A stretch of DNA of 64,000 nucleotides from Candidatus Falkowbacteria bacterium (GCA_012800315.1 JAAZJO010000006.1:10172-74171); one strand, 5' to 3'. Shown: positions 6,294 through 59,252, numbered from the stretch's first letter. Notes: generated by a model from the sequence alone, not told the origin. Numbers and translations: made by a program.

Positions 6294-7391
6294 TTAGGAA
6301 CGACGAAGCTTAGCTAAAACATTCTGATAAAACTCTAAATTATTCAAACTAGCTATTTTTTGACCTAATAATTCATTAAGTTTAAATAAATGGTGGAGAT
6401 AAGCTCGGGAATTAGTTTTTAGTTCTTTCAATTTACTATTTTTATTAATCGCTGAAAAATCAGTAGCAAAGCAGGCGTTATTAATATTAATGCTAGTATA
6501 CTTATCATTTTTTTCAGCAATAAAAAGTTTTCCGTGACGCCCCTCTCTAGTTGGGATAACACAATCAAAGATATCCCAACCCATCTCAGCGCAACGTTTA
6601 ATATCTGCCGGTGTTCCAATACCTAAAGCAAAACGCACAGCCTTTTCCGGAATAAAAGAAGCGGTCTTAGCTAAAACTTCAGCTAAAAAATTTCCTTCTT
6701 GATCAATTGGTCGCGCCCCAAAACCATAACCATCAAAACCAATTCGCACCAATTCCTGAGCGCATTTCTCACGTAAATCAATTTCTGCCCCGCCCTGAAT
6801 AACAGCAAACAAAAGAGGTTTTTTTACTCCTGTTAATTTTCTTTTCTTAATTTGTTTTAAATACTCCGCCTTACAACGTTTTGCCCAAGCAATTGTCCGC
6901 TTAACCGCTTTTTCTATCTCCGCCCGTGAAGATTCATTTGGCGGACAATCATCTAAACAAACCATCATATCTACACCTAAAGCAAATTGAATTTGAATTG
7001 ATTTTTCCGGACTTAATTCATGACGCGAACCATCCAAAGGTGATTTAAAAATAACTTTATCATCTCTAATCTCGCCCCACTGCTTATTTTTATAAAGCAA
7101 AGAAAAAACTTGAAAGCCACCAGAATCAGCTAATAAAGGTCCCGACCAATTCATAAAGCGATGAAGACCACCCGCTTTTTTTATAACTGCCAAACCTGGT
7201 TGTAAATAAAGATGAAAAGTATTAACTACTAAAACGGCTGTGCCGGTGCTTTTAACCTCATCATTAGTCATTAACTTAACAAAACCCCGCGTGGCATCCG
7301 GCATATAAAAAGGAGTATTTAAAACACCATGAGCAGTCTGTAAAACTCCCCGTCTAATTCCCGACTTGGTTGTTTTAATTAATTTAAACAT
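6294..7391 (-). CDS. tgt: tRNA-guanine transglycosylase family protein (divergent, no zinc site)
   Basis: TPFYMPDATRG, LADSGGFQV, VIQGG and FDCVIPTREGRHG...SRAYLHHL match TGT. The CxCxxC...H zinc motif is absent (see findings). Confidence 0.8.
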   Translation of the reverse strand: MFKLIKTTKSGIRRGVLQTAHGVLNTPFYMPDATRGFVKLMTNDEVKSTGTAVLVVNTFHLYLQPGLAVIKKAGGLHRFMNWSGPLLADSGGFQVFSLLYKNKQWGEIRDDKVIFKSPLDGSRHELSPEKSIQIQFALGVDMMVCLDDCPPNESSRAEIEKAVKRTIAWAKRCKAEYLKQIKKRKLTGVKKPLLFAVIQGGAEIDLREKCAQELVRIGFDGYGFGARPIDQEGNFLAEVLAKTASFIPEKAVRFALGIGTPADIKRCAEMGWDIFDCVIPTREGRHGKLFIAEKNDKYTSININNACFATDFSAINKNSKLKELKTNSRAYLHHLFKLNELLGQKIASLNNLEFYQNVLAKLRRS

Positions 7392-7395
7392 AAAA

Positions 7396-9402
7396 CTATT
7401 GCACCCTGCCAGACGAATTATTTAAATTAACAATATCATCATCCTCCAGCTTTGTTGTTTTAGCAGCCGTTTTTTTAGTAATAATACTGTTTGTTTCCGT
7501 ATCAGTTGCTTCAATCACCGAGCCAGGCGAAATAACCAAAATCTTATCATAATCATTCTCAGTAGGTACAACATTAACATTAAATTCCGCATCAGTGCGA
7601 TAAACTGAAACTGGCAAACGACCAATTTCCCAAACTACCTGACGAGTATTTTCATCATAATTTAAGCTACCAACATTAGTATAGGTCTTTTCATCAAAAT
7701 TAATATTAGCCGGCAAATTAAAAACTACTTTAACATCCGATAGCTCATGTAAATTATTTCTAACCACCCAATAAACTTTAAAACTAGTTTTTTCACCAAC
7801 TTTTGGTGGCAAAGGGCCAGAACCAACGGGAACATTATCTTCATTAAAATACAAAATCTTTTCACTCAAACTTAAATCACTATTAATCAAATTCTTTATC
7901 ACATTGCTTTTATTATCAGCCTGCTTCACCGCTTGATTATTGATACTATATTGAGCATAAGAATTAACTTCTAATTTCTTCCCCAGATCATCATCCTGAA
8001 AAGCTTGTAAATTAATTGAAAACTTTATTTCCCCTTTATCACCTGATTTAATTTCTTTCAAAGCGGGAATCTCATTCTTTGTCCAAGTAATTGATTGCCC
8101 ACGCACACTTCCCTTGTCTGTCATTTTTAAAGAAGCAAAATTAAGAAAATCGCTTTGTAAAACTGCCATAATCACTACATCCTTAAAAGAGTTCTCACCC
8201 TGATTATTATAGCTGATAACATAATCTAGGCTTTGTCCAAAATTAACAGCACTATTAGTTTTACTCTTATTAACCGATAATTCTAAATTTAAATCACTTT
8301 TTACTAATTCCGGTTGGAAAGATTTTTCCCAAAAAACATAAGCCTGCCCATCTTCCAGTTTCTTTTCTAAGCGAACAATAATTTTTGGATTAGCTATTTT
8401 AGTATTTACCCGATAAGTAATCGGAATTTCTTGACGATCCATTTCTTTATCTAAGCCACTAATTCGCCAGCTGGTTCCACCAACTTTAGTAATCACAATT
8501 TCTTTGGCTGAAGTGGCTATTGCTTCAGTTGAAGAACTAGCTTCATTAATAAGTTCGGGCAGAAGAGCTACATTAGTTTCTTCTGGCAAAGAAAAACTTA
8601 AATTAAAATCTCCAATATAATTATTTTCAACATTAAAGAAATTTAAAATCAATTCATTATCTTGATTTAAAAAAGCGGTATTAGCATAAACTAAATCCGT
8701 TCGCCAACCTAAACCGCTAATAACTGTTGAAGCTGAGGCCTCTTTTTTAAATTGGCTAGAATATTCTGAAGGCAAATAACTTAAACGAGCAATAACCACA
8801 TTAACTGAGTCTGGCTGACCAATTAATTTTCCAGTAATGCGTAAATTGGCACTACCCCCCGGCTCAAGATTAGGTAAATTCCAACCATAATTTCCACTAT
8901 CCGGCTCAATAGATCTATCAGTTACAATAAAATTTTCTGGATACTGTATTTCTAGATGAACATTTTTAAAAATAAATTTGCTTGGATTATGATAATTAAT
9001 TACATAAGAAATTTCCTCACCAACTAAAACTTTTTCTGGAGCACTAATACTTATTTCTAAAGAATTAATGTTATTATTTTTACTTAAAAAATATGTATAA
9101 GCAAAATAAGCAATCCCAATCAATAAAGTAAAGATGAGCAATCTCTTAAAAAAGCGAACAATCGCTAATTGACGACGTTTTATTTTCATTTTTTTAACAT
9201 CTACTAAATTGCCTTTTTTATCGGTATAAATTTCCGAGAGATTAGTATCTATTTCCTGACTACGCACCTCTCGCTTAATCGCCTTTTCAAAACTAGAAAC
9301 TTCCTTTTCAGTTGGGACAGGGCGTTCCACGAAAGCTGATAAACCAGAATACTCCTCTTTCACTGTGCGCAATATTTTTTTCACTTTTTTTTCTTTGCTC
9401 AT
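7396..9402 (-). CDS. Large single-pass membrane protein with repeated DUF11/CARDB-like beta-sandwich modules
   Basis: Lys-rich N-terminus, one TM helix (LLIFTLLIGIAYFAYTYF), then recurring modules such as GEEISYVINYHNPSKFIFKNVHLEIQYPENF, GQSLDYVISYNNQGENSFKDVVIMAVL and GEKTSFKVYWVVRNNLHELSDVKVVFNLP. Confidence 0.6.
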   Translation of the reverse strand: MSKEKKVKKILRTVKEEYSGLSAFVERPVPTEKEVSSFEKAIKREVRSQEIDTNLSEIYTDKKGNLVDVKKMKIKRRQLAIVRFFKRLLIFTLLIGIAYFAYTYFLSKNNNINSLEISISAPEKVLVGEEISYVINYHNPSKFIFKNVHLEIQYPENFIVTDRSIEPDSGNYGWNLPNLEPGGSANLRITGKLIGQPDSVNVVIARLSYLPSEYSSQFKKEASASTVISGLGWRTDLVYANTAFLNQDNELILNFFNVENNYIGDFNLSFSLPEETNVALLPELINEASSSTEAIATSAKEIVITKVGGTSWRISGLDKEMDRQEIPITYRVNTKIANPKIIVRLEKKLEDGQAYVFWEKSFQPELVKSDLNLELSVNKSKTNSAVNFGQSLDYVISYNNQGENSFKDVVIMAVLQSDFLNFASLKMTDKGSVRGQSITWTKNEIPALKEIKSGDKGEIKFSINLQAFQDDDLGKKLEVNSYAQYSINNQAVKQADNKSNVIKNLINSDLSLSEKILYFNEDNVPVGSGPLPPKVGEKTSFKVYWVVRNNLHELSDVKVVFNLPANINFDEKTYTNVGSLNYDENTRQVVWEIGRLPVSVYRTDAEFNVNVVPTENDYDKILVISPGSVIEATDTETNSIITKKTAAKTTKLEDDDIVNLNNSSGRVQ

Positions 9403-47337: not shown

Positions 47338-48501
47338 TTATTCTTTCACTTTAAATTCTCCTAAAATTAAATCAACTTGTTTTTCTTGACCATCACGCCA
47401 ATAACTCACCGTAATTTTATCACCAGATTTATAAGTGGCAATCACATCCGCTAAATCATTTTGCTTATCAAGTTCACGATTATTTATCCAGGTAATAATA
47501 TCACCTTCTTGTAAACCTGCTTTCTGCGCTGGACTATTTTCTAACACCGCAACTTTCCCCCGCGGATAAATCAAAGCTCCTTTATCAAGATTTTTCTCCA
47601 AAATTTTTGTAGAAGCTAGATCTAAATAATTAACACCAAAAGATGGGCGGACGTTTTTTACAACCCCCCAAAAACTTTGCCAATAATAATTATGAGCAAA
47701 GGCTGGCACCACCTCTTTATCAGCACTAATAATAGCCACCAAATCCCCAGAAAGATTAAACACTAGAGAGTTTTGCTGTAAAGCATCAGAGTTATTAGAT
47801 AGAGATAAACGCGCATTTACAGAATCACTATTTAAAATATCCGGCGTTTTTTCAAATGAAGCCAAGGTTGTTGGCCAGGCATTATGTCGGCTATTAATCA
47901 CTAATAAAGACTGCCCCAAAGACAGTTCTGACCGCGATGCTATTTTTCTAACCGGTAAATTTTCGGCTTCAGCTAAATGGAAAAAAACAATATCTCCCGG
48001 TAAATCTTTAACCACATTAACCTTATCTATTTGATATATTTTTCTGTCGGCCGAAATAGCAACAAAATCTTTACTAGTAAAAGTTTTTTTATCCTCGGCT
48101 GATAAAGAAGACATCACCCAACCGTCACTAGTCATTATTAAACCAATAAATAATGGATCGTTTAAAGAATAATAAGCCGGTTTAGCAGACACTGCCTTAG
48201 CCTCTTCTTCTTCTAGATCAATTTCCTTAAAAACACCAACAATAGAAGTTGATAAAGAATTAATTGTCTCCGCAATTTTTTGATCTTGATTAATAACCAC
48301 TTTCTTTGGTTCCTGAATAATAAAATTTGAGTTGGCGTTATTGAGGTTAGTTAAATTAACCTCCTGTTTCGCATAGGGCAAAGAAAAATCACTGACAAAA
48401 TAATTATAAGCGACTATGCCGCCAAAAATTCCCGCCAATAAACCACCAATCGCCAAAAGAGTGATCAAGAAAATTATGTTCTTTGTTAATTTCTTTTTCA
48501 T
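47338..48501 (-). CDS. Membrane-anchored HtrA-like (trypsin-fold plus PDZ) protein, catalytic status uncertain
   Basis: N-terminal TM helix, a region alignable by eye to S1C proteases (GDIVFFHL, QQNSLVFNLSGDLVAII), and a clear C-terminal PDZ domain (SPAQKAGLQEGDIITWINNRELD). Confidence 0.55.
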   Translation of the reverse strand: MKKKLTKNIIFLITLLAIGGLLAGIFGGIVAYNYFVSDFSLPYAKQEVNLTNLNNANSNFIIQEPKKVVINQDQKIAETINSLSTSIVGVFKEIDLEEEEAKAVSAKPAYYSLNDPLFIGLIMTSDGWVMSSLSAEDKKTFTSKDFVAISADRKIYQIDKVNVVKDLPGDIVFFHLAEAENLPVRKIASRSELSLGQSLLVINSRHNAWPTTLASFEKTPDILNSDSVNARLSLSNNSDALQQNSLVFNLSGDLVAIISADKEVVPAFAHNYYWQSFWGVVKNVRPSFGVNYLDLASTKILEKNLDKGALIYPRGKVAVLENSPAQKAGLQEGDIITWINNRELDKQNDLADVIATYKSGDKITVSYWRDGQEKQVDLILGEFKVKE

Positions 48502-49327: not shown

Positions 49328-51640
49328 CTAATAGCTTGGAGATTCTATTAAGTTCTCCTCTGCCGTTTCCACTGGAGCTTCCCCTAAAACTTCCGTTGAA
49401 GTTCCTGCAACAGGCTCTGCTGGAGTATCTATTAAATTGTCTCTTGGAGTTTCTGTAACGGCTTCTTTTATACCTTGTTCTAATGTTTCAGCTGTAGGCT
49501 CTAAAATTGCCCCTGCACTATCCTCGGGAAGATTCTCAGTTACTGGAGCTATAATGTAATCGCCCTCATCCTCAATTAGGACCAAGCTTTTAACTAAACT
49601 TAAATCAAGTAGGCTATTTATCTTTAAAAATTTATTGGAAAAAGTAAATAGATAATCATTAATATAAAAACTTCTCTTCACCACACTATCAGAATAGTCA
49701 TGATTAAGAAAACTGCTAAGTTTAGCCGCTGGAGAAATATGATCTATCTTTTCTCTTAAAACAAATTTATTATCAATAATATTAAAAATCAAAGAACCAG
49801 AGAAAACAGTTTGCTTATTCTCTTTTAGCACAATCGGCAAAGATAGCAAGTTCTTTCCTCCTGAATACAAAAAGGATTTATGGTCTTCAAAAATAATTGA
49901 ATCACTACCCACATCGCCAAAAATTGCAGAATTAAGTTCTTTTGGTTTCGCTAAATCAGTAAAATCAAATAAAGAAATTTTTAAACCCTTGGCTTTAATT
50001 AAACCACTGTCATCATCTTGCATATTATAACCAACGCCAATTAATTTATGACCATTCTGATCAATCGGATAAAAATAAGTTGAGGCATCTGGAATGCGCA
50101 GGGCGCCTGAAACTGTTGGCTTAGTAGGATCATCTAAACTGATAATATAAAGAGGGTCACTTTGTTTAGTAGTAATCAAATAGGCTCTATTTCCTAAAAA
50201 ACGAGCAGCGTATATTTTTTCGTTAGTTACTAAGTTTTCCAAGCGACCAACTACCTTAAGTTCATTATCAAGAACAAAAATATTACTATATGGCTCAGAT
50301 TGTGTCTCAGCTAAACGCGCTCCCACTGAACTTTGAGCAGTCGCTATCCGAAAATAACCATCCTCCTCATTCATTGAAAGCTCATTCAAAATTTGACCAT
50401 TTACTTCAGCAAAACCACGATATTCAAAATTTTTCCCATTGAGGGCTATTTTATAAATAGTCGTTTTTCCTGTATCAGCTGATCTAGCCATTAACTTTTC
50501 TTTCATTTTCTCACTAATCTTCAACTGAATGGCCTTTGCTTCTTCCGTCCCTAAATTAGCTAAATAATTATCCATTAAAGCAGCAACCTTCACCTTCTTT
50601 TCAGCCGTATTTAAAACATAATCAGCTACCGCCTCAATTTCAGTTATTTTATTCTGTTCCTCAGCACTTAAATCTGCCAATATTAATTCTCTTTTAGCTG
50701 ATTGTTCTAAATCATATTCATCTATTGCCTCAGTATATGTAAGGTAAACATTTTTTTGAGCAATATATATAGCTTGCTCATCATTAATTAAATATGACTG
50801 CCCACTGATTGGTTCAGTCTTATCACTAATATTGATAGCTACTATATTAAAATAATGAAAGGAGTTATACGGAATATCAAAATAAAAAACTTCCGGCGCA
50901 AAACAATCGCTAGCTACACTGCAATCATTAGATAAAGTAAAGCCCTGACTAGTTGCCTGTGGGATTAAAGATTTTCCCTTTTTATAATCAATAAAACTAT
51001 CGGTAAATAAATAAACATAATCTCCATTTAAACGAGCCTCCCGATAATTGCCTTCAAAACCTAGTTCTCGCACTAAAGTTGGATTAGTCGGATTAGCTAA
51101 ATCAAAAACTTTTACAGACACTTTTGCTTGATCAGCAAATTCAAAAACAACTAAATTATTTCCGCTGATAAAAATATTTTGTGGCTGCGATTCAAAAGTT
51201 ATTGTGCTAATCACCTCGGCTTCAGAAGCTGGGTTAATTTTAATTATTTTTAATTCATCACGAAGCAAGGCATAAACATAATTGCCACCAAACTTAACTA
51301 TATCAGCCTCATCAAGTCCTGGTACTTGAATATTTATTGGCGAAAAATCTTCAGTCGTCTCAGTCCTATTAATTACTTCTCTTGCTATTCCACTAGTACT
51401 CCCTTGCTTAGCACTCTTTTCTTCAAAAAATTTTTCCAATCCCTGATAATCACTAAACTTCATCAATTGTTTAGTCTTAACCGGAACATCATCAGCAGAA
51501 ATTTCTTTTGTTTTTTCCTTTTTTACCTCCACAGAGGTAGCGGAATTTTTTTTCTGCCAAGGAAAAGTACAACCACTCACCAAAACAGCTGAGATAAGAA
51601 TAATAAAAGAAAATTTTATTATTTTTTTAAACATAGACAA
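49328..51640 (-). CDS. Lipoprotein with beta-propeller domain (COG4880-like secreted beta-propeller)
   Basis: Lipobox LVSGC. INIQVPGLDEADIVKFGGNYVYAL matches the motif I recall for the 'beta propeller domain' family. Acidic, low-complexity C-terminal tail. Confidence 0.65.
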   Translation of the reverse strand: MSMFKKIIKFSFIILISAVLVSGCTFPWQKKNSATSVEVKKEKTKEISADDVPVKTKQLMKFSDYQGLEKFFEEKSAKQGSTSGIAREVINRTETTEDFSPINIQVPGLDEADIVKFGGNYVYALLRDELKIIKINPASEAEVISTITFESQPQNIFISGNNLVVFEFADQAKVSVKVFDLANPTNPTLVRELGFEGNYREARLNGDYVYLFTDSFIDYKKGKSLIPQATSQGFTLSNDCSVASDCFAPEVFYFDIPYNSFHYFNIVAINISDKTEPISGQSYLINDEQAIYIAQKNVYLTYTEAIDEYDLEQSAKRELILADLSAEEQNKITEIEAVADYVLNTAEKKVKVAALMDNYLANLGTEEAKAIQLKISEKMKEKLMARSADTGKTTIYKIALNGKNFEYRGFAEVNGQILNELSMNEEDGYFRIATAQSSVGARLAETQSEPYSNIFVLDNELKVVGRLENLVTNEKIYAARFLGNRAYLITTKQSDPLYIISLDDPTKPTVSGALRIPDASTYFYPIDQNGHKLIGVGYNMQDDDSGLIKAKGLKISLFDFTDLAKPKELNSAIFGDVGSDSIIFEDHKSFLYSGGKNLLSLPIVLKENKQTVFSGSLIFNIIDNKFVLREKIDHISPAAKLSSFLNHDYSDSVVKRSFYINDYLFTFSNKFLKINSLLDLSLVKSLVLIEDEGDYIIAPVTENLPEDSAGAILEPTAETLEQGIKEAVTETPRDNLIDTPAEPVAGTSTEVLGEAPVETAEENLIESPSY

Positions 51641-51754: not shown

Positions 51755-53329
51755 TTAATTATCTAAAGAAAATTCACAACCACAAAATTTTTGCCGATAA
51801 AGACCCAATTCTTTAGCCAATTCTTGTGAGCGCTGATAACCATTATTAGCCTGAAAATCTATATCCAAAAATTTAGGACCATTTTCAGCAGTTAAAGATA
51901 AGCTAATCTTTTTAATAGCCTCTGTATCTTTATAAGGACTGAGTAAAAGACTGGTGCTAAAATAAGTAAATTTCTTTTTTTGAGCTAAAAGCGCTGTTCT
52001 ACTTAAACGATCACGATAACAAAGATGACAACGCTTCCCTCTTTCTGGATCAGTTTCCCGGCCCTTGACTTTCTCTAACCAAGCCTCATGTTTATAAGGT
52101 TCAACAATTAAGGGAATGGCTAGCTTAGTCGCCACAAATTTAACCGCTGCTAAACGTTTATTATATTCTTCAAGAGAATTTAAATTTGGATTATCAAAAT
52201 ACCAAGTTAGTTTATATTGTGGTAATAAAATATCACGACTAATATAAGAAGCGCACGGTGCACAGCAAACATGAAGTAGGAGGGATGGCTTTTTATTTTT
52301 ACGATCCATAAACCAAAAGGTAACTACCAAGCCAAACATAATCACCACTAATAAAATTAAAGCTAAAAATTTCCCCCGACTTTGTAAAAACAAACCACTT
52401 AAACCAAATGACAAAGCTAAAAAATAAAAAAGTAAAACAGTCCCCCTTTGTCCTAAACCAAGATCAAGAAGGCGATGGTGTAAATGTTTTTTATCGGCAC
52501 TCTTAAAAGGGTTTTGCTTATTTATTAAGCGACGTAAAATTGTCCAAAAAACATCAAGAATCGGAATACCCATAATTAAAAGAGCAATCGCTATTTTCCC
52601 TCCAGAAATAATTGCTAAAACTCCCAAGATATAACCAAGTAATAAAGAGCCACCCTCTCCGAGAAATATTTTAGCCGGATGCCAGTTAAAAATTAAAAAA
52701 CCAAGAGCTGTTCCGGTTAATAGAATTGAGGCAAAGGCAATATCTGGTTGAAAATAGCGAGTTGTAGTGGTAAATAAAAAAATAACAAAACCACCAATGG
52801 CTGTTATTCCTGTTACCAAGCCATCTACCCCATCTAGCAGCTTAGTGGTGTACATCATTCCTAAAAGCCAAAAAGCAATTAGCAGCGGGCTGATAATGGC
52901 TAGTGAGTTTAAATCAATGTAGCCACCAGTAAAGGGATTGGTAATTTTTTCAATTTCCACACCTCCCAAAATAACTACCGCAATCGCCAGTAAGGGAAAA
53001 ATTATTTGCTTTCTTGGAGGTAAATTATATTTATCATCCAGCGCACCGCCAATCACTAAAATTAAAGCACCTATAAAAAAAGCCAGAAGATGTGACCAAC
53101 GCAGATTACCTGATAAAAAATGCCGCGCAAAAATAAATAGCAAAATAAAATAAGCTAAAAAAATAGCCATCCCACCTAACAGCGGAATTGGCTGACGATG
53201 AATCTTGCGTCCGTGACCACCTTCATCGGGCTGATCTAAAATATTCAAAGAAATAGCTGCTTTTCTAACTAAAACAGTTATCCCGGCTGTGAGTACTAAA
53301 CTAGTAAAAAAAATAAAAAAATAAAACAT
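51755..53329 (-). CDS. Fusion protein: WecA/TagO-type polyprenyl-phosphate HexNAc-1-P transferase (MraY/GT4 family) plus C-terminal QueH-like (DUF208) epoxyqueuosine reductase domain
   Basis: N-terminal about 340 aa: multi-TM with PLLGG, DDKYNL, KLLDGVDGL, NWHPAKIFLGEGGS and HLHHRLLDLG. C-terminal 184 aa from the in-frame Met at 52309: LLLHVCCAPCAS...KRCHLCYRDRL...FCGCEFS (QueH Cys pattern). I placed the start at ATG 53327-29 (MFYFFIFF), 1 nt after the upstream stop. Confidence 0.75.
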   Translation of the reverse strand: MFYFFIFFTSLVLTAGITVLVRKAAISLNILDQPDEGGHGRKIHRQPIPLLGGMAIFLAYFILLFIFARHFLSGNLRWSHLLAFFIGALILVIGGALDDKYNLPPRKQIIFPLLAIAVVILGGVEIEKITNPFTGGYIDLNSLAIISPLLIAFWLLGMMYTTKLLDGVDGLVTGITAIGGFVIFLFTTTTRYFQPDIAFASILLTGTALGFLIFNWHPAKIFLGEGGSLLLGYILGVLAIISGGKIAIALLIMGIPILDVFWTILRRLINKQNPFKSADKKHLHHRLLDLGLGQRGTVLLFYFLALSFGLSGLFLQSRGKFLALILLVVIMFGLVVTFWFMDRKNKKPSLLLHVCCAPCASYISRDILLPQYKLTWYFDNPNLNSLEEYNKRLAAVKFVATKLAIPLIVEPYKHEAWLEKVKGRETDPERGKRCHLCYRDRLSRTALLAQKKKFTYFSTSLLLSPYKDTEAIKKISLSLTAENGPKFLDIDFQANNGYQRSQELAKELGLYRQKFCGCEFSLDN

Positions 53330-53330
53330 A

Positions 53331-56024
53331 TTACAACGCCTGAGCTTTCTCAATCTCAATTTCTGCCCGTGAGTTAATAACTACTGTATCCCGACGTTTT
53401 AATTCGCCACTCAGTATCCTGTGGGCAATAATATTTTCCACTCTATCTTGAAGTAAACGACGTAAGGGCCGAGCTCCGAATTTAGGATCATAACCCTCTT
53501 GAGCTAAAATAGCCACCCCATCTTTATCAGCTTTAAAATAAATACCTTTTTCTCCCAGATTCTTTTTAATCTTTTTCAACATTAGAGTAGCAATATCAAT
53601 AACATTATCCTTAGTCAAAGGTTTAAAAACAATAATGCCATCAAAACGATTAATCAACTCTGGCCGCATGTATTTATTTAACTGATTATCAATCAATTCC
53701 TGCTTAATAATATTAATTTTGGTCTTAGCCTTAATTTGTTCTTGAATATATAAAGCGCCGATATTTGAAGTAGCGATAATAATTGATTCTGAAAAATTAA
53801 TTGTTCTGCCCTGGCCATCCGTTAAACGTCCATCATCAAATAATTGTAAAAAAAGATGTAAAATATCTGGATGCGCTTTTTCAATTTCGTCTAATAAAAT
53901 CAGAGAAAACGGTTTTTTACGAACTGCTTCAGTTAAATAGCCTAAAGTACCATCAACATCGCCGATCATTTTGCGGACGCTGTCTGGATGCTGATATTCA
54001 CTCATATCTACTCTAATTAAATAATCAGCATCGCCGAAATAAATTTCAGACACTGCTTTAGCTAGTTCCGTTTTACCAACACCAGTTGGTCCTAAAAATA
54101 AAAAGCTGGCAATCGGCCGATCTTCATCTTTCAAAGCAGTGCGAGCACGACGCAAACTAGCGGCCACCGCCGTAACCGCTTCTTCTTGACCAATTAAACG
54201 TTTATGAATTTCTTTTTCCAAAGTTAATAATTTTTGGCTTTCATCAATAGTAATTTTATTAACTAAAATGCCAGTCATTTCTTCTACCGCTAAAGCCACC
54301 TCTTCACCACTACAAAAATTTTTATCTGGATTATTCTGTCTATTTTTCGCAGCAATTAAGGCAGCTTTTTCTAATAAATTAATCGCCTTAAATGGCAAAG
54401 CCTTGTCATGCAAATAACGTTCAGACATTTTCACCGCTTGCTCTAAAGCGCTATAAACAATAAAAATATCATATTTTGATTCTAAATAACCAACTTTACT
54501 CTCTAAAATCTGGATAGTTTGATTAAAATCAGGCTCCTTAACCCCAACAGTGGTCATTACACTACCCAAAGCTTTATTTTCAATATATTTAACATAGTTT
54601 TCAGTTGTGGCTGAGGCTAAACATAAAAGATGACGACGACTAAGAGACTCCGCCAAAACTTCTGATAAATCTAAACTTTCTCGACTACCCGCGCTAATAC
54701 CAATTAAATTTTCAATATTATCTATATAAAGAATAATATTTCTTGAACGATTAATCTCATTAATGATCATTAATAAACGCTCCTCAGCCATCGCCGGATC
54801 AGCACCACTCACTAAACGTGAAACATCTAATTCAACCAAACGTTTATCTTTTAGAAAATCCGGCACTTTTTCCTCAACCATTAAACGCGCTAAGCCGTGA
54901 ATAATAGCACTCTTGCCCACGCCAGTTGAACCAACTAAAAGAACACCACTATGCCCCCCAGTAAAAGCTTCAAAAATAGCTCTAATTTCTTTTTTTCTAC
55001 CAACACAAATTTCATTTAAATCATATTTAGATTGAATGGTTAAATCATGAGAAAAATGGTCTAATGTCGGTGTGGCAATCGCAGTATAGGCTCTATCCAT
55101 ACCTGTGCCCGGCTTTAAAATCGCTAAACGACGATAATTATTATAATTATCTAGCATAATCTGATTAACTCTAAACCACTCAACCGTATTCATCAATTTA
55201 TCAGCATCAACTTCTAATTCATACAATATTTCTGCTAATCGCGGATCTCTTTCATAGCAAAATGGAATTAAATCAATAATTTTTATATTATCCTGCTCTA
55301 AATTAAAAGCTTCAATAAAAGATAAAATTAAAACTTCCTCTAAAGACGAGGATAGTTGGCTGCGACCAGAAAACTTATCCGCCGGATTAATTAATTGACG
55401 ATCTAATAATTCAACTAATTTTTTAGCATTAACATTAAGTCTAATAAAAAGCGCTTGTACTTCTTTTTTCTTCAAAAGCACTCTAAAAAGATGAATGGCT
55501 GTCACCTCAGCTTGTTTTAATTTATCAGCCAACAAAAAAGCTTCCTCAATCGCCTCAATTACTTCATCACTACAAGCCTTAGCTACATTATATCTTTTCG
55601 GACTATTTGAATTTTTATCAGCTGAAGAGGCAAAATTATGATAATTTATTTTTTTAACACTCGCCTTGGCTTCACTTTTTTTATAAAACAGAAATAAATC
55701 AAACCACAAAGAAAGTAAAAAACAAAAAATAAGCGGATCTTTTTTAGCCCAAAAAAAGAAAATACGTATTGGGTTATCTAACAAAACAGCTTGATTACGT
55801 AAAATCCATAAAGCAAAAGCCAGCCAACCAGCAAAAATAATCAACCAAGTAAAAAACTCTAAAATCTTCTCTAATCTCTTTTTAGAGTTTTCTAATTTAA
55901 TTAATGACCACTTTAAATCCTTTTCCCAATACAAAAACCTACCCAAAAACCAAGTGCCGGGGCGACCACTAGAAGAATCAGGGGTAAAAACAATTTGCTC
56001 AGGTTTTGTTTTTTCAATTATCAT
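53331..56024 (-). CDS. Membrane-anchored Clp/Hsp100-family AAA+ protein (two AAA modules, degenerate D1, no M-domain)
   Basis: Two N-terminal hydrophobic helices and two Clp_N-like repeats. D1 has GSTGVGKS but ILYIDNIENL in place of Walker B. D2 is intact: GPTGVGKTELAK, LILLDEIEKAHPD and GARPLRR. Confidence 0.8.
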   Translation of the reverse strand: MIIEKTKPEQIVFTPDSSSGRPGTWFLGRFLYWEKDLKWSLIKLENSKKRLEKILEFFTWLIIFAGWLAFALWILRNQAVLLDNPIRIFFFWAKKDPLIFCFLLSLWFDLFLFYKKSEAKASVKKINYHNFASSADKNSNSPKRYNVAKACSDEVIEAIEEAFLLADKLKQAEVTAIHLFRVLLKKKEVQALFIRLNVNAKKLVELLDRQLINPADKFSGRSQLSSSLEEVLILSFIEAFNLEQDNIKIIDLIPFCYERDPRLAEILYELEVDADKLMNTVEWFRVNQIMLDNYNNYRRLAILKPGTGMDRAYTAIATPTLDHFSHDLTIQSKYDLNEICVGRKKEIRAIFEAFTGGHSGVLLVGSTGVGKSAIIHGLARLMVEEKVPDFLKDKRLVELDVSRLVSGADPAMAEERLLMIINEINRSRNIILYIDNIENLIGISAGSRESLDLSEVLAESLSRRHLLCLASATTENYVKYIENKALGSVMTTVGVKEPDFNQTIQILESKVGYLESKYDIFIVYSALEQAVKMSERYLHDKALPFKAINLLEKAALIAAKNRQNNPDKNFCSGEEVALAVEEMTGILVNKITIDESQKLLTLEKEIHKRLIGQEEAVTAVAASLRRARTALKDEDRPIASFLFLGPTGVGKTELAKAVSEIYFGDADYLIRVDMSEYQHPDSVRKMIGDVDGTLGYLTEAVRKKPFSLILLDEIEKAHPDILHLFLQLFDDGRLTDGQGRTINFSESIIIATSNIGALYIQEQIKAKTKINIIKQELIDNQLNKYMRPELINRFDGIIVFKPLTKDNVIDIATLMLKKIKKNLGEKGIYFKADKDGVAILAQEGYDPKFGARPLRRLLQDRVENIIAHRILSGELKRRDTVVINSRAEIEIEKAQAL

Positions 56025-56035
56025 ATCAACTTAGT

Positions 56036-56410
56036 TTATTTCAATATTTGAAGAAGTAAAGCGTAAACAAGAGCCACGGGCAAAATTAACCACAGCAGTA
56101 AAGCTAAAAAACAAAGACTTGCCCACAAAAGCAAAATAAAGCCACGAGCGATAATTTGGACCAAGCGCATAAAAAAACTAATCACTCGGCCAGCGAGATC
56201 ATATTGACCATACATCGGCACTAAAATATTCTTCGCCCAGATTAAAAAACCCAAAGATTTTTCTCGCTGAATTAAAAAAAGGCGGATATTCTTAAAAAAA
56301 CGAAGAAATCCGACGCTGTACCACCAAATTGGAAAATAAATTAGCTCTAAAACTAAAGAAACAATTATTTTCCCGCTATAAGTTAAAAAATTATGCTGAA
56401 ACTTAAGCAT
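56036..56410 (-). CDS. Hypothetical small membrane protein (3-4 TM helices), first gene of the apparent Clp-like operon
   Basis: 124-aa hydrophobic ORF, 11 nt upstream of and co-oriented with the Clp-like gene. Confidence 0.55.
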   Translation of the reverse strand: MLKFQHNFLTYSGKIIVSLVLELIYFPIWWYSVGFLRFFKNIRLFLIQREKSLGFLIWAKNILVPMYGQYDLAGRVISFFMRLVQIIARGFILLLWASLCFLALLLWLILPVALVYALLLQILK

Positions 56411-56512: not shown

Positions 56513-56541
56513 TTGACAAAGAAGCAAGCATATATTATGAT
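56513..56541 (+). promoter_or_regulatory. clpB promoter (TTGACA-17-TATGAT)
   Basis: Consensus TTGACA at 56513-18, a 17-nt spacer, and TATGAT at 56536-41. Confidence 0.6.
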
Positions 56542-56600: not shown

Positions 56601-59252
56601 ATGTTTAATAAATTTACTGATAAATCTCAAGAAGCTATCATTAATTCTCAAATTCTTGCCTCTGCTTATGGTCAAGCAAATATTGAAGCTCTACACATCC
56701 TCTTAGCTCTACTCCAACAAAATGAAAGTTTAATTAAACCAATTTTAGAGAAGATGAAAATTGATCCAGAAATTATTGAAGATTATACAATTAATGAAAT
56801 AAAAAAACTGCCACGTGTAAAAACCACTGTTAACAGTGGTCCAGTGCAAGCTGTTTCTGGCACCGCTGAAACAGCTGTTATTCTAGAGCGCGCTCAAAAA
56901 GAGGCGGCTAGCATGAATGATGAATTTATTTCTACTGAACACATTTTATTAGCTCTCATTGGTGTCGTTTCTCCAGCCCAAACTATTCTTTTAAATTTTA
57001 AAGTTGAATATAGTACTGTTAAACAAATATTAAAAGAATTGCGCGGTTCCCAAACAATCACCGATCCTTTTCCAGAAAATAAATATAAAGTTTTAGAAAA
57101 ATACACCACTAATTTAACAGAATTAGCGCGCCAAGAAAAACTTGATCCAGTTATTGGTCGCGATGAAGAAATCCGCCGCATCATGCAAGTGCTTTTACGT
57201 CGCACTAAAAATAATCCAGTATTAATTGGTGAAGCGGGTACTGGAAAAACAGCTATCGTGGAAGGTTTAGCCCAAAGAATAATCGCTGGTGATGTACCAG
57301 AAAATTTAAAAAATAAAGAAATTGTTTCTTTAGATTTAGGCTCTTTAGTGGCTGGCGCAAAATTTCGTGGTGAATTTGAAGATCGTCTCAAGGCTGTTCT
57401 TAAAGAAGTAAAATCACAAAATGGACGCATTATTTTATTTATTGATGAGCTGCACACCTTAATCGGAGCTGGCGCTTCGGAAGGTTCTATGGATGCTTCT
57501 AATATGTTAAAACCGGAATTGGCCCGCGGCGAATTATGTACTATTGGCGCAACAACTACTAAGGAATATCAAAAATATATTGAAAAGGATGCCGCTCTAG
57601 AAAGACGCTTCCAACCAATCATGGTTAATGAACCAAGTATTGAGGACACTATTTCTATGTTGCGCGGCTTAAAAGAAAAATATGAGGTCCATCACGGTGT
57701 TCGCATTACCGATAACGCTGTGATTGCGGCGGCTAAACTATCTAATCGCTACATCAGCGATCGCTTCTTGCCAGATAAGGCGGTTGATTTAATTGATGAA
57801 GCCACCTCTTCTTTAAGAATGGAAATTGATTCTATGCCTGATGAGCTTGACCAGCTAAAAAGAAAGATTAAACAGCTTGAATTAAATAAAGCTGGTATTA
57901 TGACTACTGAAAAAAAATCCAGTAAATTAAAAAATATAAATTCAGAATTAGCTAAACTGAAAGAAAAAGCTACTCAGCTAGAATTACATTGGAATAATGA
58001 AAAAAATATCATCTCACAAATAAGAAATTCTAAAAAAGAAATAGATGAATTAAAAATTAAAGCCGAAATTGCTCAACGTCAAGGAACTGATTTAACTGAA
58101 GTTGCTAAAATAAAATATGCTTTAATTCCTGAATTAGAAAATAAAATTAAAAAATCACAAGAAGAATTACTTAAGATTCAGAAAAAAGGACAAAGAATTT
58201 TAAAGGAAGAGGTTGATGAGGAAGATATTGCTAAGGTAGTGGCGCGCTGGACTGGCATTCCGGTTAACCGCATGCTTCAAGATGAAATTAGAAAATTAAG
58301 TGAAGCAGAAACTGAACTTAACAAAGAAGTAATTGGGCAAGAAGAAGCTATTAAAGCAATTTCTAATGCTTTACGTCGTTCTCGCGCTGGCATTAATGAA
58401 GAAAAAAAACCAATCGGCTCCTTTCTCTTTGTTGGGCCAACTGGTGTTGGTAAAACGGAATTAGCTAAAAGCTTAGCGCGCTTCATGTTTAATGATAAAA
58501 AAGCCTTAATCCGTTTAGATATGAGCGAATTCATGGAAAAACATTCGGTAGCTAAATTAATTGGTTCCCCACCCGGCTATATTGGACATGATGACGGTGG
58601 TCAATTAACTGATAAAGTTCGTCGTCATCCCTACAGCGTTGTCTTGTTTGATGAAATTGAAAAAGCACACCCAGACATCTTTAATGTGCTACTCCAAATT
58701 TTAGATGATGGTCGCTTAACTGACTCCAAGGGCCGAACAGTCAATTTTAAAAACACCATCATTATTATGACTTCTAATCTAGGCAATGAAATTATTAAAC
58801 AATATTCTATTGGTTTTTCCGATAACAGCGATAAAAAGGAAGCTGGTCAGCTGCGCGCTGAAGAAATGAAGGAAAAAATTGATAAAATATTGAAAGATAA
58901 TTTTAAATTAGAGTTTTTGAATCGTATTGATGAAATTGTTCTCTTTAGAAGTTTAACACCAGCCGGTCTAGAAAAAATTGTTGATTTAGAATTAGCTAAA
59001 GTAGAAAAACGTTTACATAATAAAAATATTAGCCTACGTATCAGTCCCAAAGTTAAAAAACTTCTGGCTGAAAAAGGTTACGATATTACTTATGGTGCTC
59101 GCCCACTTAAACGTATTATCCAAACAATGATTTTAGATGAACTAGCTTTAGAAATAATTGAAGGGAAGGTTAAAGAAGGTGATAAAATTAAAATTGATCT
59201 AGGCAATACTGAAAAAATTACAATATTAGTTAAACAACCCGCTAAAAAATAA
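56601..59252 (+). CDS. clpB: Chaperone ClpB (Hsp100 disaggregase)
   Basis: Clp_N repeats. D1 has GEAGTGKTA and ILFIDELHTL, followed by a long coiled-coil M-domain. D2 has GPTGVGKTELAK, VVLFDEIEKAHPD and GARPLKR. Confidence 0.95.
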   Translation: MFNKFTDKSQEAIINSQILASAYGQANIEALHILLALLQQNESLIKPILEKMKIDPEIIEDYTINEIKKLPRVKTTVNSGPVQAVSGTAETAVILERAQKEAASMNDEFISTEHILLALIGVVSPAQTILLNFKVEYSTVKQILKELRGSQTITDPFPENKYKVLEKYTTNLTELARQEKLDPVIGRDEEIRRIMQVLLRRTKNNPVLIGEAGTGKTAIVEGLAQRIIAGDVPENLKNKEIVSLDLGSLVAGAKFRGEFEDRLKAVLKEVKSQNGRIILFIDELHTLIGAGASEGSMDASNMLKPELARGELCTIGATTTKEYQKYIEKDAALERRFQPIMVNEPSIEDTISMLRGLKEKYEVHHGVRITDNAVIAAAKLSNRYISDRFLPDKAVDLIDEATSSLRMEIDSMPDELDQLKRKIKQLELNKAGIMTTEKKSSKLKNINSELAKLKEKATQLELHWNNEKNIISQIRNSKKEIDELKIKAEIAQRQGTDLTEVAKIKYALIPELENKIKKSQEELLKIQKKGQRILKEEVDEEDIAKVVARWTGIPVNRMLQDEIRKLSEAETELNKEVIGQEEAIKAISNALRRSRAGINEEKKPIGSFLFVGPTGVGKTELAKSLARFMFNDKKALIRLDMSEFMEKHSVAKLIGSPPGYIGHDDGGQLTDKVRRHPYSVVLFDEIEKAHPDIFNVLLQILDDGRLTDSKGRTVNFKNTIIIMTSNLGNEIIKQYSIGFSDNSDKKEAGQLRAEEMKEKIDKILKDNFKLEFLNRIDEIVLFRSLTPAGLEKIVDLELAKVEKRLHNKNISLRISPKVKKLLAEKGYDITYGARPLKRIIQTMILDELALEIIEGKVKEGDKIKIDLGNTEKITILVKQPAKK

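Follow-up and report, generated by a model that had tools for sequence, protein, structure and literature searches.

A Hsp100-like gene and its small upstream neighbour

The stretch of DNA that we analysed comes from Candidatus Falkowbacteria bacterium (GCA_012800315.1, JAAZJO010000006.1:10172-74171) and is 64,000 nucleotides (nt) long; we refer to the whole of it as the window. Its minus strand encodes an 897-amino acid (aa) protein related to the Hsp100/Clp ATPases, and directly upstream of that gene a 124-aa predicted membrane protein, which we call the partner (Table 1). The large protein joins a predicted N-terminal membrane anchor to the body of a Clp ATPase. Its first AAA+ module (D1) has lost catalytic residues, and its second (D2) combines an intact ATPase site with a pore loop that lacks the canonical tyrosine. 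As shown below, the pair is conserved across a large family in Patescibacteria. The boundaries of our open reading frames (ORFs) were the same in the independent gene calls of JGI and ENA, and the ATG of the next gene downstream, a WecA-QueH fusion, lies at 53329, 1 nt past the stop of the 897-aa ORF. The coordinates, reading frames and short intergenic distances of the initial annotation, made from the DNA sequence alone, are thus borne out.

Table 1. Features of the locus in window coordinates. Residue numbers refer to the 897-aa protein; KD, Kyte-Doolittle; WW, Wimley-White octanol sum; AF2, AlphaFold2; TM, transmembrane.
Feature	Coordinates	Strand	Evidence or remark
Hsp100/Clp-like ORF, 897 aa	53331..56024	(-)	ORF call
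N-terminal mini-domain, residues 1-38, WFLGRFLYW conserved	55911..56024	(-)	alignment; AF2 strands 13-15, 22-26, 29-32
Predicted TM helix 1, residues 57-75, FFTWLIIFAGWLAFALWIL	55800..55856	(-)	KD 2.18; WW -18.6 kcal/mol; AF2 helix 39-76
Predicted TM helix 2, residues ~96-115, family motif FWxSLLxDLFLxYR	55680..55739	(-)	KD 1.69; WW -12.9 kcal/mol; AF2 helix 97-122
Clp_N-like N-domain, residues 151-301	55122..55574	(-)	Clp_N 19.1 bits; TIGR02639 from 153; eight predicted helices
D1 AAA+ module, residues 331-568, catalytically degenerate	54321..55034	(-)	sequence alignments
D1 Walker B, residues 431-436, ILYIDN (ILFIDE in ClpB/ClpC), catalytic Glu to Asn	54717..54734	(-)
D1 position of the trans-acting Arg pair, residues 487-490, GSVM for ERRF	54555..54566	(-)
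D2 module and D2-small, residues 569-885	53370..54320	(-)	Pfam, alignments
D2 pore loop-1, residues 688-696, GDVDGTLGY, 5 residues shorter, no GYVG tyrosine	53937..53963	(-)
Partner ORF, 124 aa	56036..56410	(-)	ORF call; 11-nt gap to the 897-aa ORF
WecA-type GT4 phosphoglycosyltransferase::QueH fusion	51755..53329	(-)	Pfam PF00953 and PF02677
Canonical clpB, divergent	56601..59252	(+)	TIGR03346, 1203 bits; context, not a module member outside the window's clade
clpB promoter-like site TTGACA-17-TATGAT	56513-56541	(+)	near-consensus sigma-70
CIRCE-like inverted repeat TTAGCACTC-N9-GACTGCTAA	56546-56572	(+)	after the clpB promoter-like site

Domain architecture and predicted membrane anchor

Pfam identified AAA_lid_9 (residues 501-568), AAA_2 (636-795) and ClpB_D2-small (803-883) in the 897-aa protein, which are the signatures of the two AAA+ modules of class I Hsp100/Clp proteins (AAA_lid_9 following D1, AAA_2 with ClpB_D2-small making up D2). 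The ClpA model TIGR02639 aligned continuously over residues 153-883. All curated NCBIfam cutoffs were missed widely, with 532 against 1232 bits for ClpB and 461 against 993 for ClpA (TIGR02639). The N-domain scored 19.1 bits with Clp_N, just under the cutoff of 20.7; a relative reached 30.3 bits, and Clp_N is listed in the precomputed Pfam annotation. The Clp-type domain order of the initial annotation therefore stands, with a weak Clp_N match.

The AF2 model of the large protein was built from a family alignment of 120 sequences (predicted local distance difference test score, pLDDT, 86; predicted template modelling score, pTM, 0.77). It places a beta unit (residues 13-32), a helix (39-76), short helices, a further helix (97-122) and an eight-helix N-domain (153-301) ahead of D1 and D2. 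The best Foldseek matches of the protomer were ClpC, ClpB and ClpC1, with a target-normalised template modelling score of ~0.8 over ~585 residues and 36-42% identity.

The two strongly hydrophobic N-terminal helices that had been pointed out from the sequence were recovered by Kyte-Doolittle hydropathy, by Wimley-White octanol sums and in the AF2 model. Kyte-Doolittle alone gave one false-positive segment in soluble ClpB, and the second scale and a family-wide comparison were added. No Wimley-White window below -8 was found in the ClpB of the window, and the median most-negative window in the soluble part of 80 diverse relatives was -2.6. The second hydrophobic helix is the most conserved piece of the anchor.

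The residues ahead of the anchor form a mini-domain, predicted to be cytoplasmic, that is a remnant of the double CxxCxGxG, zinc-ribbon-like unit of distant relatives. Here and below, family counts refer to 80 diverse sequences and close-clade counts to 118 or 120 close relatives. Two N-terminal CxxCxGxG motifs with a conserved F-x-Y-W after them occur in 55 of the 80 diverse members and in none of 120 close relatives, and Pfam matched this motif in relatives weakly to DnaJ_CXXCXGXG and Anti-TRAP (E 0.02-0.09). The window protein retains just the beta remnant and WFLGRFLYW of this unit.

Two landmarks of other Clp proteins are missing from the body, as had also been noted at the outset. The long coiled-coil M-domain, which ClpB carries as an insert in its D1 small domain, is absent: family members have ~68 aa in the region of residues 540-610, where ClpB has 191, and the AAA_lid_9 match ends at profile position 70 of 104. 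No ClpP-docking loop ([ILVM]G[FL]) was found in any of the 80 diverse members, and the window protein has a six-residue gap at the VGF loop of ClpC. In the ClpB encoded next to the pair, Clp_N, a full AAA_lid_9 and the M-domain are all present.

D1 is degenerate and D2 keeps its catalytic site but not its pore tyrosine

The motifs of D1 were aligned to Bacillus subtilis ClpC and to the window's own ClpB, and D2 was aligned to ClpC with HMMER. In D1, the Walker A motif GSTGVGKS is intact, as the P-loop is in the window's clade. The Walker B region reads ILYIDNIENL, so that asparagine occupies the place of the catalytic glutamate, and the segment ALERRFQ of ClpB and ClpC is replaced by ALGSVMT. 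Alignment to both proteins revealed no intact Walker B motif or arginine pair, in agreement with the degenerate D1 of the initial annotation. The D1 pore loop reads GADPAMAEE against GAK[YF]RGEFE in ClpB and ClpC; DPA stands at the position of KYR and the tyrosine is lost. In ClpB, the two D1 arginines link nucleotide binding with oligomerisation and activity (PMC4239642). With its standard catalytic glutamate and trans-acting arginines gone, D1 is predicted to be unable to hydrolyse ATP.

All catalytic motifs of D2 are intact: Walker A (GPTGVGKT), Walker B (LLDEIEK), sensor-1 (TSN, N754), the arginine finger (NRFD, R793) and sensor-2 (GARPLRR). From these motifs, D2 is predicted to form a complete inter-subunit active site and to be the sole motor of the protein. 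The pore loop is another matter. Its stretch reads MIGDVDGTLGYLTEA, and the ClpC equivalent is longer. HMMER places GTLG opposite the GYVG of ClpC, with threonine for tyrosine and the next five residues deleted, whereas MAFFT lets the deletion fall over GYVG; the canonical tyrosine is absent under both alignments. In the AF2 model, seven pore-loop residues are left between helices 682-687 and 696-703. The loop GDVDGTLGY is strongly conserved within the close clade. The initial view of D2 as fully canonical is thus correct for catalysis but not for the loop that would contact substrate, and the proposed unfoldase with one active ring as its motor does not hold in that form, as this ring is without the canonical pore tyrosine, both here and in the majority of family members. 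For Clp/Hsp100 proteins, an aromatic residue in the pore loop has been described as critical to processive unfolding (PMC5425593). The loss of the D2 tyrosine makes both the term unfoldase and an FtsH-like threading or extraction role doubtful.

These features extend across the family. In D1, the Walker B glutamate is canonical in one of the 80 diverse members, the two arginines in 10 and nine, and the pore loop carries an aromatic residue in five; the P-loop lysine is kept in 68, and the serine or threonine that follows it in 40. In D2, the Walker A lysine and threonine and sensor-1 are present in 80/80, the Walker B aspartate and glutamate in 79/80 and the arginine finger in 78/80. An aromatic residue occurs in the D2 pore loop of 13 members, seven of which have the canonical PPG[YF]. 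The D2 catalytic residues are invariant or nearly so down to ~25% N-terminal identity, and D2-large is the best-conserved region, with 56% identity to the window protein among diverse members against 41% for D1-large. Within the close clade, the non-canonical residues of D1 are themselves fixed (Asn436 in 115/118, Gly487 in 118/118). The invariant D2 residues, the conservation of D2-large and the fixation of non-canonical D1 residues argue for a functional rather than a decaying protein.

A widespread family in Patescibacteria

With its N-terminal 563 aa as query, the window protein matched at least 1120 proteins. Among the best 120 of these, nearly all were 889-921 aa long (the exceptions being 826 and 621 aa), and the anchor was covered; databases label them ClpC or "Clp protease ATP-binding subunit", from Falkowbacteria or "Patescibacteria group". 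Residues 1-330 searched against 1.84 billion representatives at 50% identity retrieved 235 clusters at E<=1e-3, 155 of them at <=1e-10; many of the 235 are 870-940 aa long, and identity falls to ~25%. Scanning one genome per GTDB species with a single conserved peptide pattern gave 574 confirmed stretches. A word-indexed search with the N-terminus of a distant member gave no match; the sensitivity of this index is poor for the low-complexity hydrophobic region, and relatives are many by the exhaustive search. Named distant members, whose taxonomy was taken from cluster names only, are Uhrbacteria and Kerfeldbacteria, which NCBI places as candidate phyla in the Patescibacteria/Parcubacteria group. 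We take Falkow-, Uhr- and Kerfeldbacteria all to fall in GTDB class ABY1.

This is a real and widely conserved Patescibacteria family, and the module is well supported. We found no description of the family or of its architecture in the literature. The initial annotation had allowed that the protein might belong to a well-characterised family of known function; no such description came to light.

Many records of metagenome-assembled genomes (MAGs) titled "uncultured Gammaproteobacteria bacterium" (L001, L003 and L008 among others; L numbers denote the loci that we compared) carry a Patescibacteria-type locus with the same synteny and 41-85% identity. These titles are likely placeholders or wrong taxonomy. 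L024, titled Saccharimonadales, resembles the Falkowbacteria loci.

The partner is a predicted membrane hairpin that always accompanies the large protein

Gene order was compared in 80 close loci (41-85% N-terminal identity) and nine distant ones (L084-L092). In every close locus with upstream DNA (75/75), the next gene upstream, on the same strand, is a homologue of the partner; the other five loci begin at a contig end. All nine distant loci likewise have an ORF of 119-156 aa as the next gene upstream; the gaps range from -10 to +20 nt, two of these ORFs overlapping the large gene, and all nine are homologous to the window partner at 26-40% identity. The pairing that had been suggested from the window alone is thus a property of the family.

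We detected 224 homologues of the partner, ~122 aa long. The window partner had no match in Pfam, NCBIfam, PHROGs or PADLOC, and a fold search of the PDB returned non-significant helical matches only (E >3). AF2 models it with a pLDDT of 89.6 as long helices at residues 8-53 and 72-123 joined by an invariant PMYG.Y loop. Hydrophobic stretches cover ~15-33 and 91-120. Between them, the stalk (34-90) contains nine lysines or arginines against two acidic residues, a net charge of +7, and this excess of basic residues makes a cytoplasmic stalk likely. We therefore predict that the partner forms a membrane hairpin of two helices, with PMYG at the tip of its basic stalk. P27, W29, W30, Y31, G34, P65, M66, I77, S78, R82 and P111 are invariant across distant lineages. 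A charge pair between an aspartate in the second transmembrane helix of the large protein and an invariant arginine of the partner was considered and dropped, as members without the aspartate keep the arginine.

Comparison with known AAA+ systems

By homology, the 897-aa protein is a member of the Hsp100/Clp superfamily, and it fails the features that define ClpB, ClpA/C/E and active class I proteins. The order of N-domain, D1 with lid, and D2 with D2-small is that of ClpC, ClpB and ClpA, and the D2 catalytic site is identical to theirs in all motifs. Unlike these proteins, it has a predicted N-terminal transmembrane hairpin and a dedicated small membrane partner, it has lost the D1 Walker B glutamate, arginine pair and pore tyrosine, and its D2 pore loop is shortened and without tyrosine. 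It also lacks the M-domain of ClpB and ClpC and the ClpP loop of ClpA, ClpC and ClpE. To our knowledge, the characterised bacterial Hsp100/Clp proteins are all soluble and grip their substrates by pore-loop tyrosines.

FtsH and Msp1/ATAD1 are membrane-anchored AAA+ extractases with a cytoplasmic ring at the membrane surface, a layout that the N-terminal anchor and cytoplasmic AAA+ ring predicted here resemble. FtsH and Msp1 are single-ring proteins of the classical clade with aromatic pore loops, whereas the window protein has a two-ring Hsp100 body without them. As to the M41 zinc-protease domain of FtsH, no peptidase family is among the Pfam matches of the 897-aa protein, the C-terminus of which is ClpB_D2-small. 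In NSF (D2), PEX1/PEX6 (D1) and ClpA (D1, its minor ring), one ring binds nucleotide or serves as a scaffold while the other works. This logic of one inactive ring is alike, but those proteins are soluble and their active ring has aromatic pore loops, unlike the 897-aa protein.

The two CxxCxGxG motifs with which most distant members start recall the zinc domains of ClpE and ClpX and the CxxCxGxG fingers of DnaJ. In contrast to those zinc units, there are two repeats only, under the Pfam cutoff and followed by the transmembrane hairpin, and they have been lost in the window's clade. A Dodola DolB or other defence-type Clp ATPase was rejected: PADLOC gave a generic D2 match (112 bits, residues 586-871), and the neighbours are housekeeping genes with no defence gene nearby.

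Torsins are Clp/Hsp100 relatives with an N-terminal hydrophobic domain, no aromatic pore loops and membrane-protein cofactors, LAP1 and LULL1 (PMC5425593). Like them, the window protein is predicted to attach to the membrane and has an Hsp100-type D2, a pore without its tyrosine and a membrane partner. Torsins lack an arginine finger of their own, which the cofactor supplies, whereas R793 is kept in nearly all diverse members. The torsin cofactor is AAA+-like and the partner here a two-helix hairpin; torsins are single-ring, eukaryotic proteins of the endoplasmic reticulum lumen. In its way of working, the pair may join FtsH- and Msp1-like anchoring to the torsin theme of a membrane partner and no aromatic pore loop.

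Proposed function and alternatives

Our favoured explanation, which we give about an even chance of being correct, is that the pair is a Patescibacteria-specific, membrane-docked and ClpP-independent AAA+ machine, with D1 as a structural ring, D2 as the motor and low-grip remodelling carried out together with the hairpin partner. The large protein would descend from a ClpC/ClpB-type Hsp100. Its N-terminal helical hairpin would sit in the membrane with both ends inside, leaving the mini-domain and the AAA+ body in the cytoplasm. As the trans-acting arginine finger of D2 and D2-small are retained, the large subunits probably assemble as a ring. D1 in this clade probably still binds ATP, like an E-to-Q trap mutant, and would most likely be a static ring for assembly or a platform. 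The absence of the docking loop indicates that nothing is fed to ClpP, and that of the M-domain that there is no coupling to DnaK. The small protein would be an obligate partner in physical contact with the large one, its stalk reaching toward the ATPase with the PMYG loop at its tip. As the tyrosine is gone from both pore loops, we expect limited, low-grip remodelling or switching instead of processive threading of whole polypeptides. Targets may be membrane-embedded or membrane-proximal clients, or the partner assembly itself. Our best guess for the client is envelope-biogenesis membrane proteins or general membrane-protein quality control, the envelope part being suggested by the neighbouring genes.

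Several points weigh against this explanation. Membrane insertion of the large protein is predicted from hydropathy scales and AF2 helices, and the hexamer and its interaction with the partner are deduced from motifs and synteny only. Some translocation activity may exist, given the members that keep PPG[YF] and the strong conservation of the GTLG loop in the window's clade. The GT4 and tRNA-guanine transglycosylase (TGT) genes found near the pair (see below) may be inherited synteny of no functional meaning. Finally, remodelling is a vague term when no client is named.

Two alternatives, each of which we regard as unlikely, differ in what the D2 ring would do. The first is a classical threading extractase, following the logic of FtsH (as the initial annotation had speculated) and Msp1 without a protease, in which the D2 ring pulls membrane proteins through its axial pore. 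The anchor would turn the entry face of the ring to the membrane, nothing is missing from the D2 ATPase site, which is highly conserved, the clade's GDVDGTLGY loop is under strong conservation and a few members have PPG[YF], all of which is consistent with pulling. Against this stand the absence of the canonical tyrosine from D1 and D2 alike in the window protein, the rarity of aromatics in both loops throughout the family, a D2 loop that falls five residues short of those of ClpB and ClpC, and the description of aromatic pore loops as critical to processive Clp/Hsp100 unfolding (PMC5425593). The second, also improbable, is a machine that threads no polypeptide. The hairpins of six Clp subunits and of six partners, with 12 helices from either set, would build a ring within the membrane that the ATP cycle of D2 opens, closes or reshapes, acting as a gated conduit, an insertase or a remodeller of membranes or lipid carriers. 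Such a ring would be a prokaryotic counterpart of the logic of torsin and its membrane cofactors, in a large branch of Patescibacteria.

We think it considerably less probable that the machine is dedicated to envelope glycans, assembling, regulating or turning over the WecA-type polyprenyl-phosphate glycosyltransferase encoded downstream. A GT4 gene is next downstream in 76 of the 80 close loci, followed by the QueH part in 67, and it is immediately downstream in two distant loci as well (L085 and L090, with gaps of 4 and 2 nt). L091 and L084 carry glycosyltransferase and flippase genes close upstream, and one contig has a Clp::GT4 fusion. This fusion is a single ORF of 1231 aa (L092, 4001-7696, P0330), seen as one sequence on one contig; we set it aside as evidence for a link to GT4, as it is either genuine or the product of a lost stop or an assembly or sequencing error in one MAG. 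The GT4 gene is not adjacent in five distant loci (L084, L087, L088, L089 and L091). It is part of a larger block that recurs in distant lineages (CLIPPER-domain protein, TGT, small gene, Clp-like gene, GT4, L21, RecR, YbaB and DnaB), and its adjacency may thus be inherited.

Databases annotate these proteins as "ATP-dependent Clp protease ATP-binding subunit" or ClpC, but an ordinary subunit of ClpC/ClpA type that binds ATP for the ClpP protease is very improbable. ClpC is the top PDB match by sequence and by fold, but the docking loop is missing throughout the diverse members, the scores are far under the NCBIfam cutoffs, and a dead D1, the absent M-domain and the predicted transmembrane anchor count against it as well. 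That the gene is a decaying, functionless clpB paralog, as the degenerate D1 motifs and pore loops might suggest, is contradicted by full-length ORFs in hundreds of lineages, invariant D2 catalytic residues, fixed non-canonical D1 residues and the constant presence of the partner, and is hardly credible.

If the explanation of the pair as a membrane-docked machine with a structural D1 and a D2 motor is right, it illustrates the extent to which an Hsp100 scaffold can take on a new purpose: a membrane-integral protein with a dead D1 and both pore tyrosines lost, yet with a perfect D2 ATPase site. Such a natural variant with one active ring and without aromatic pore loops would be useful to mechanistic work. 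The module is conserved and misannotated as "ClpC" in an uncultivated radiation with poorly understood membrane and envelope biology, and the label of Clp protease subunit misleads metabolic and proteostasis reconstructions of these genomes.

Genomic neighbourhood

In the window, the WecA-QueH gene is probably in the same transcript as the Clp-like gene. The single operon that had been proposed for them is compatible with the spacing, and the arrangement may instead reflect the inherited gene block that recurs in distant lineages. GT4 without QueH follows in L033, L053 and L062, which are long loci. TGT and QueH are both genes of the queuosine pathway. In L087, L088, L090 and L092, genes for a CLIPPER/DUF11 protein and TGT directly precede the pair of small and Clp-like genes. 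In the window, the CLIPPER-TGT pair is at 6294-9402 (-), 46 kb from the pair of small and Clp-like genes, which suggests that the ancestral block has been split in this clade.

The divergent clpB gene lies upstream in 57 of the 80 close loci and is not adjacent in eight of the nine distant ones. The divergent arrangement that had been reported for the window is thus confirmed and is specific to the window's clade. In the window, a CIRCE-like site (controlling inverted repeat of chaperone expression) precedes clpB. The inverted repeat has one mismatch to the CIRCE consensus. The partner gene may have a promoter of its own: a TG-extended -10 element, TAATAT (56456-56451), with a weak -35 element, TTGTTT (56479-56474), was recognised by eye and was not listed by the promoter scan. 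This predicted promoter lies ~70-95 nt from the CIRCE-like site, a candidate HrcA target.

No clpP, clpX, ftsH or lon was met among 20 further ORFs in a non-exhaustive survey of the 64-kb window, a stretch too short to speak for the genome as a whole. Downstream of the proposed operon, at 49328-51640 (-) and 47338-48501 (-), are genes for three possible envelope or secreted proteins: a 770-aa Beta_propel protein (PF09826) with an apparently lipoprotein-like N-terminus, a 252-aa protein without a family and a PDZ-domain protein. Among the distant loci, genes linked to protein quality control recur loosely beside the module, and those of chaperone type, with the clpB of the window, speak for our favoured explanation: a canonical clpB lies two genes 3' of the module in L088 (8333-10906), a gene for a DnaJ-domain protein is divergent upstream in L086 (4119-5390), and a Pup_ligase-family gene is just 5' of the partner gene in L090 (3079-4542).

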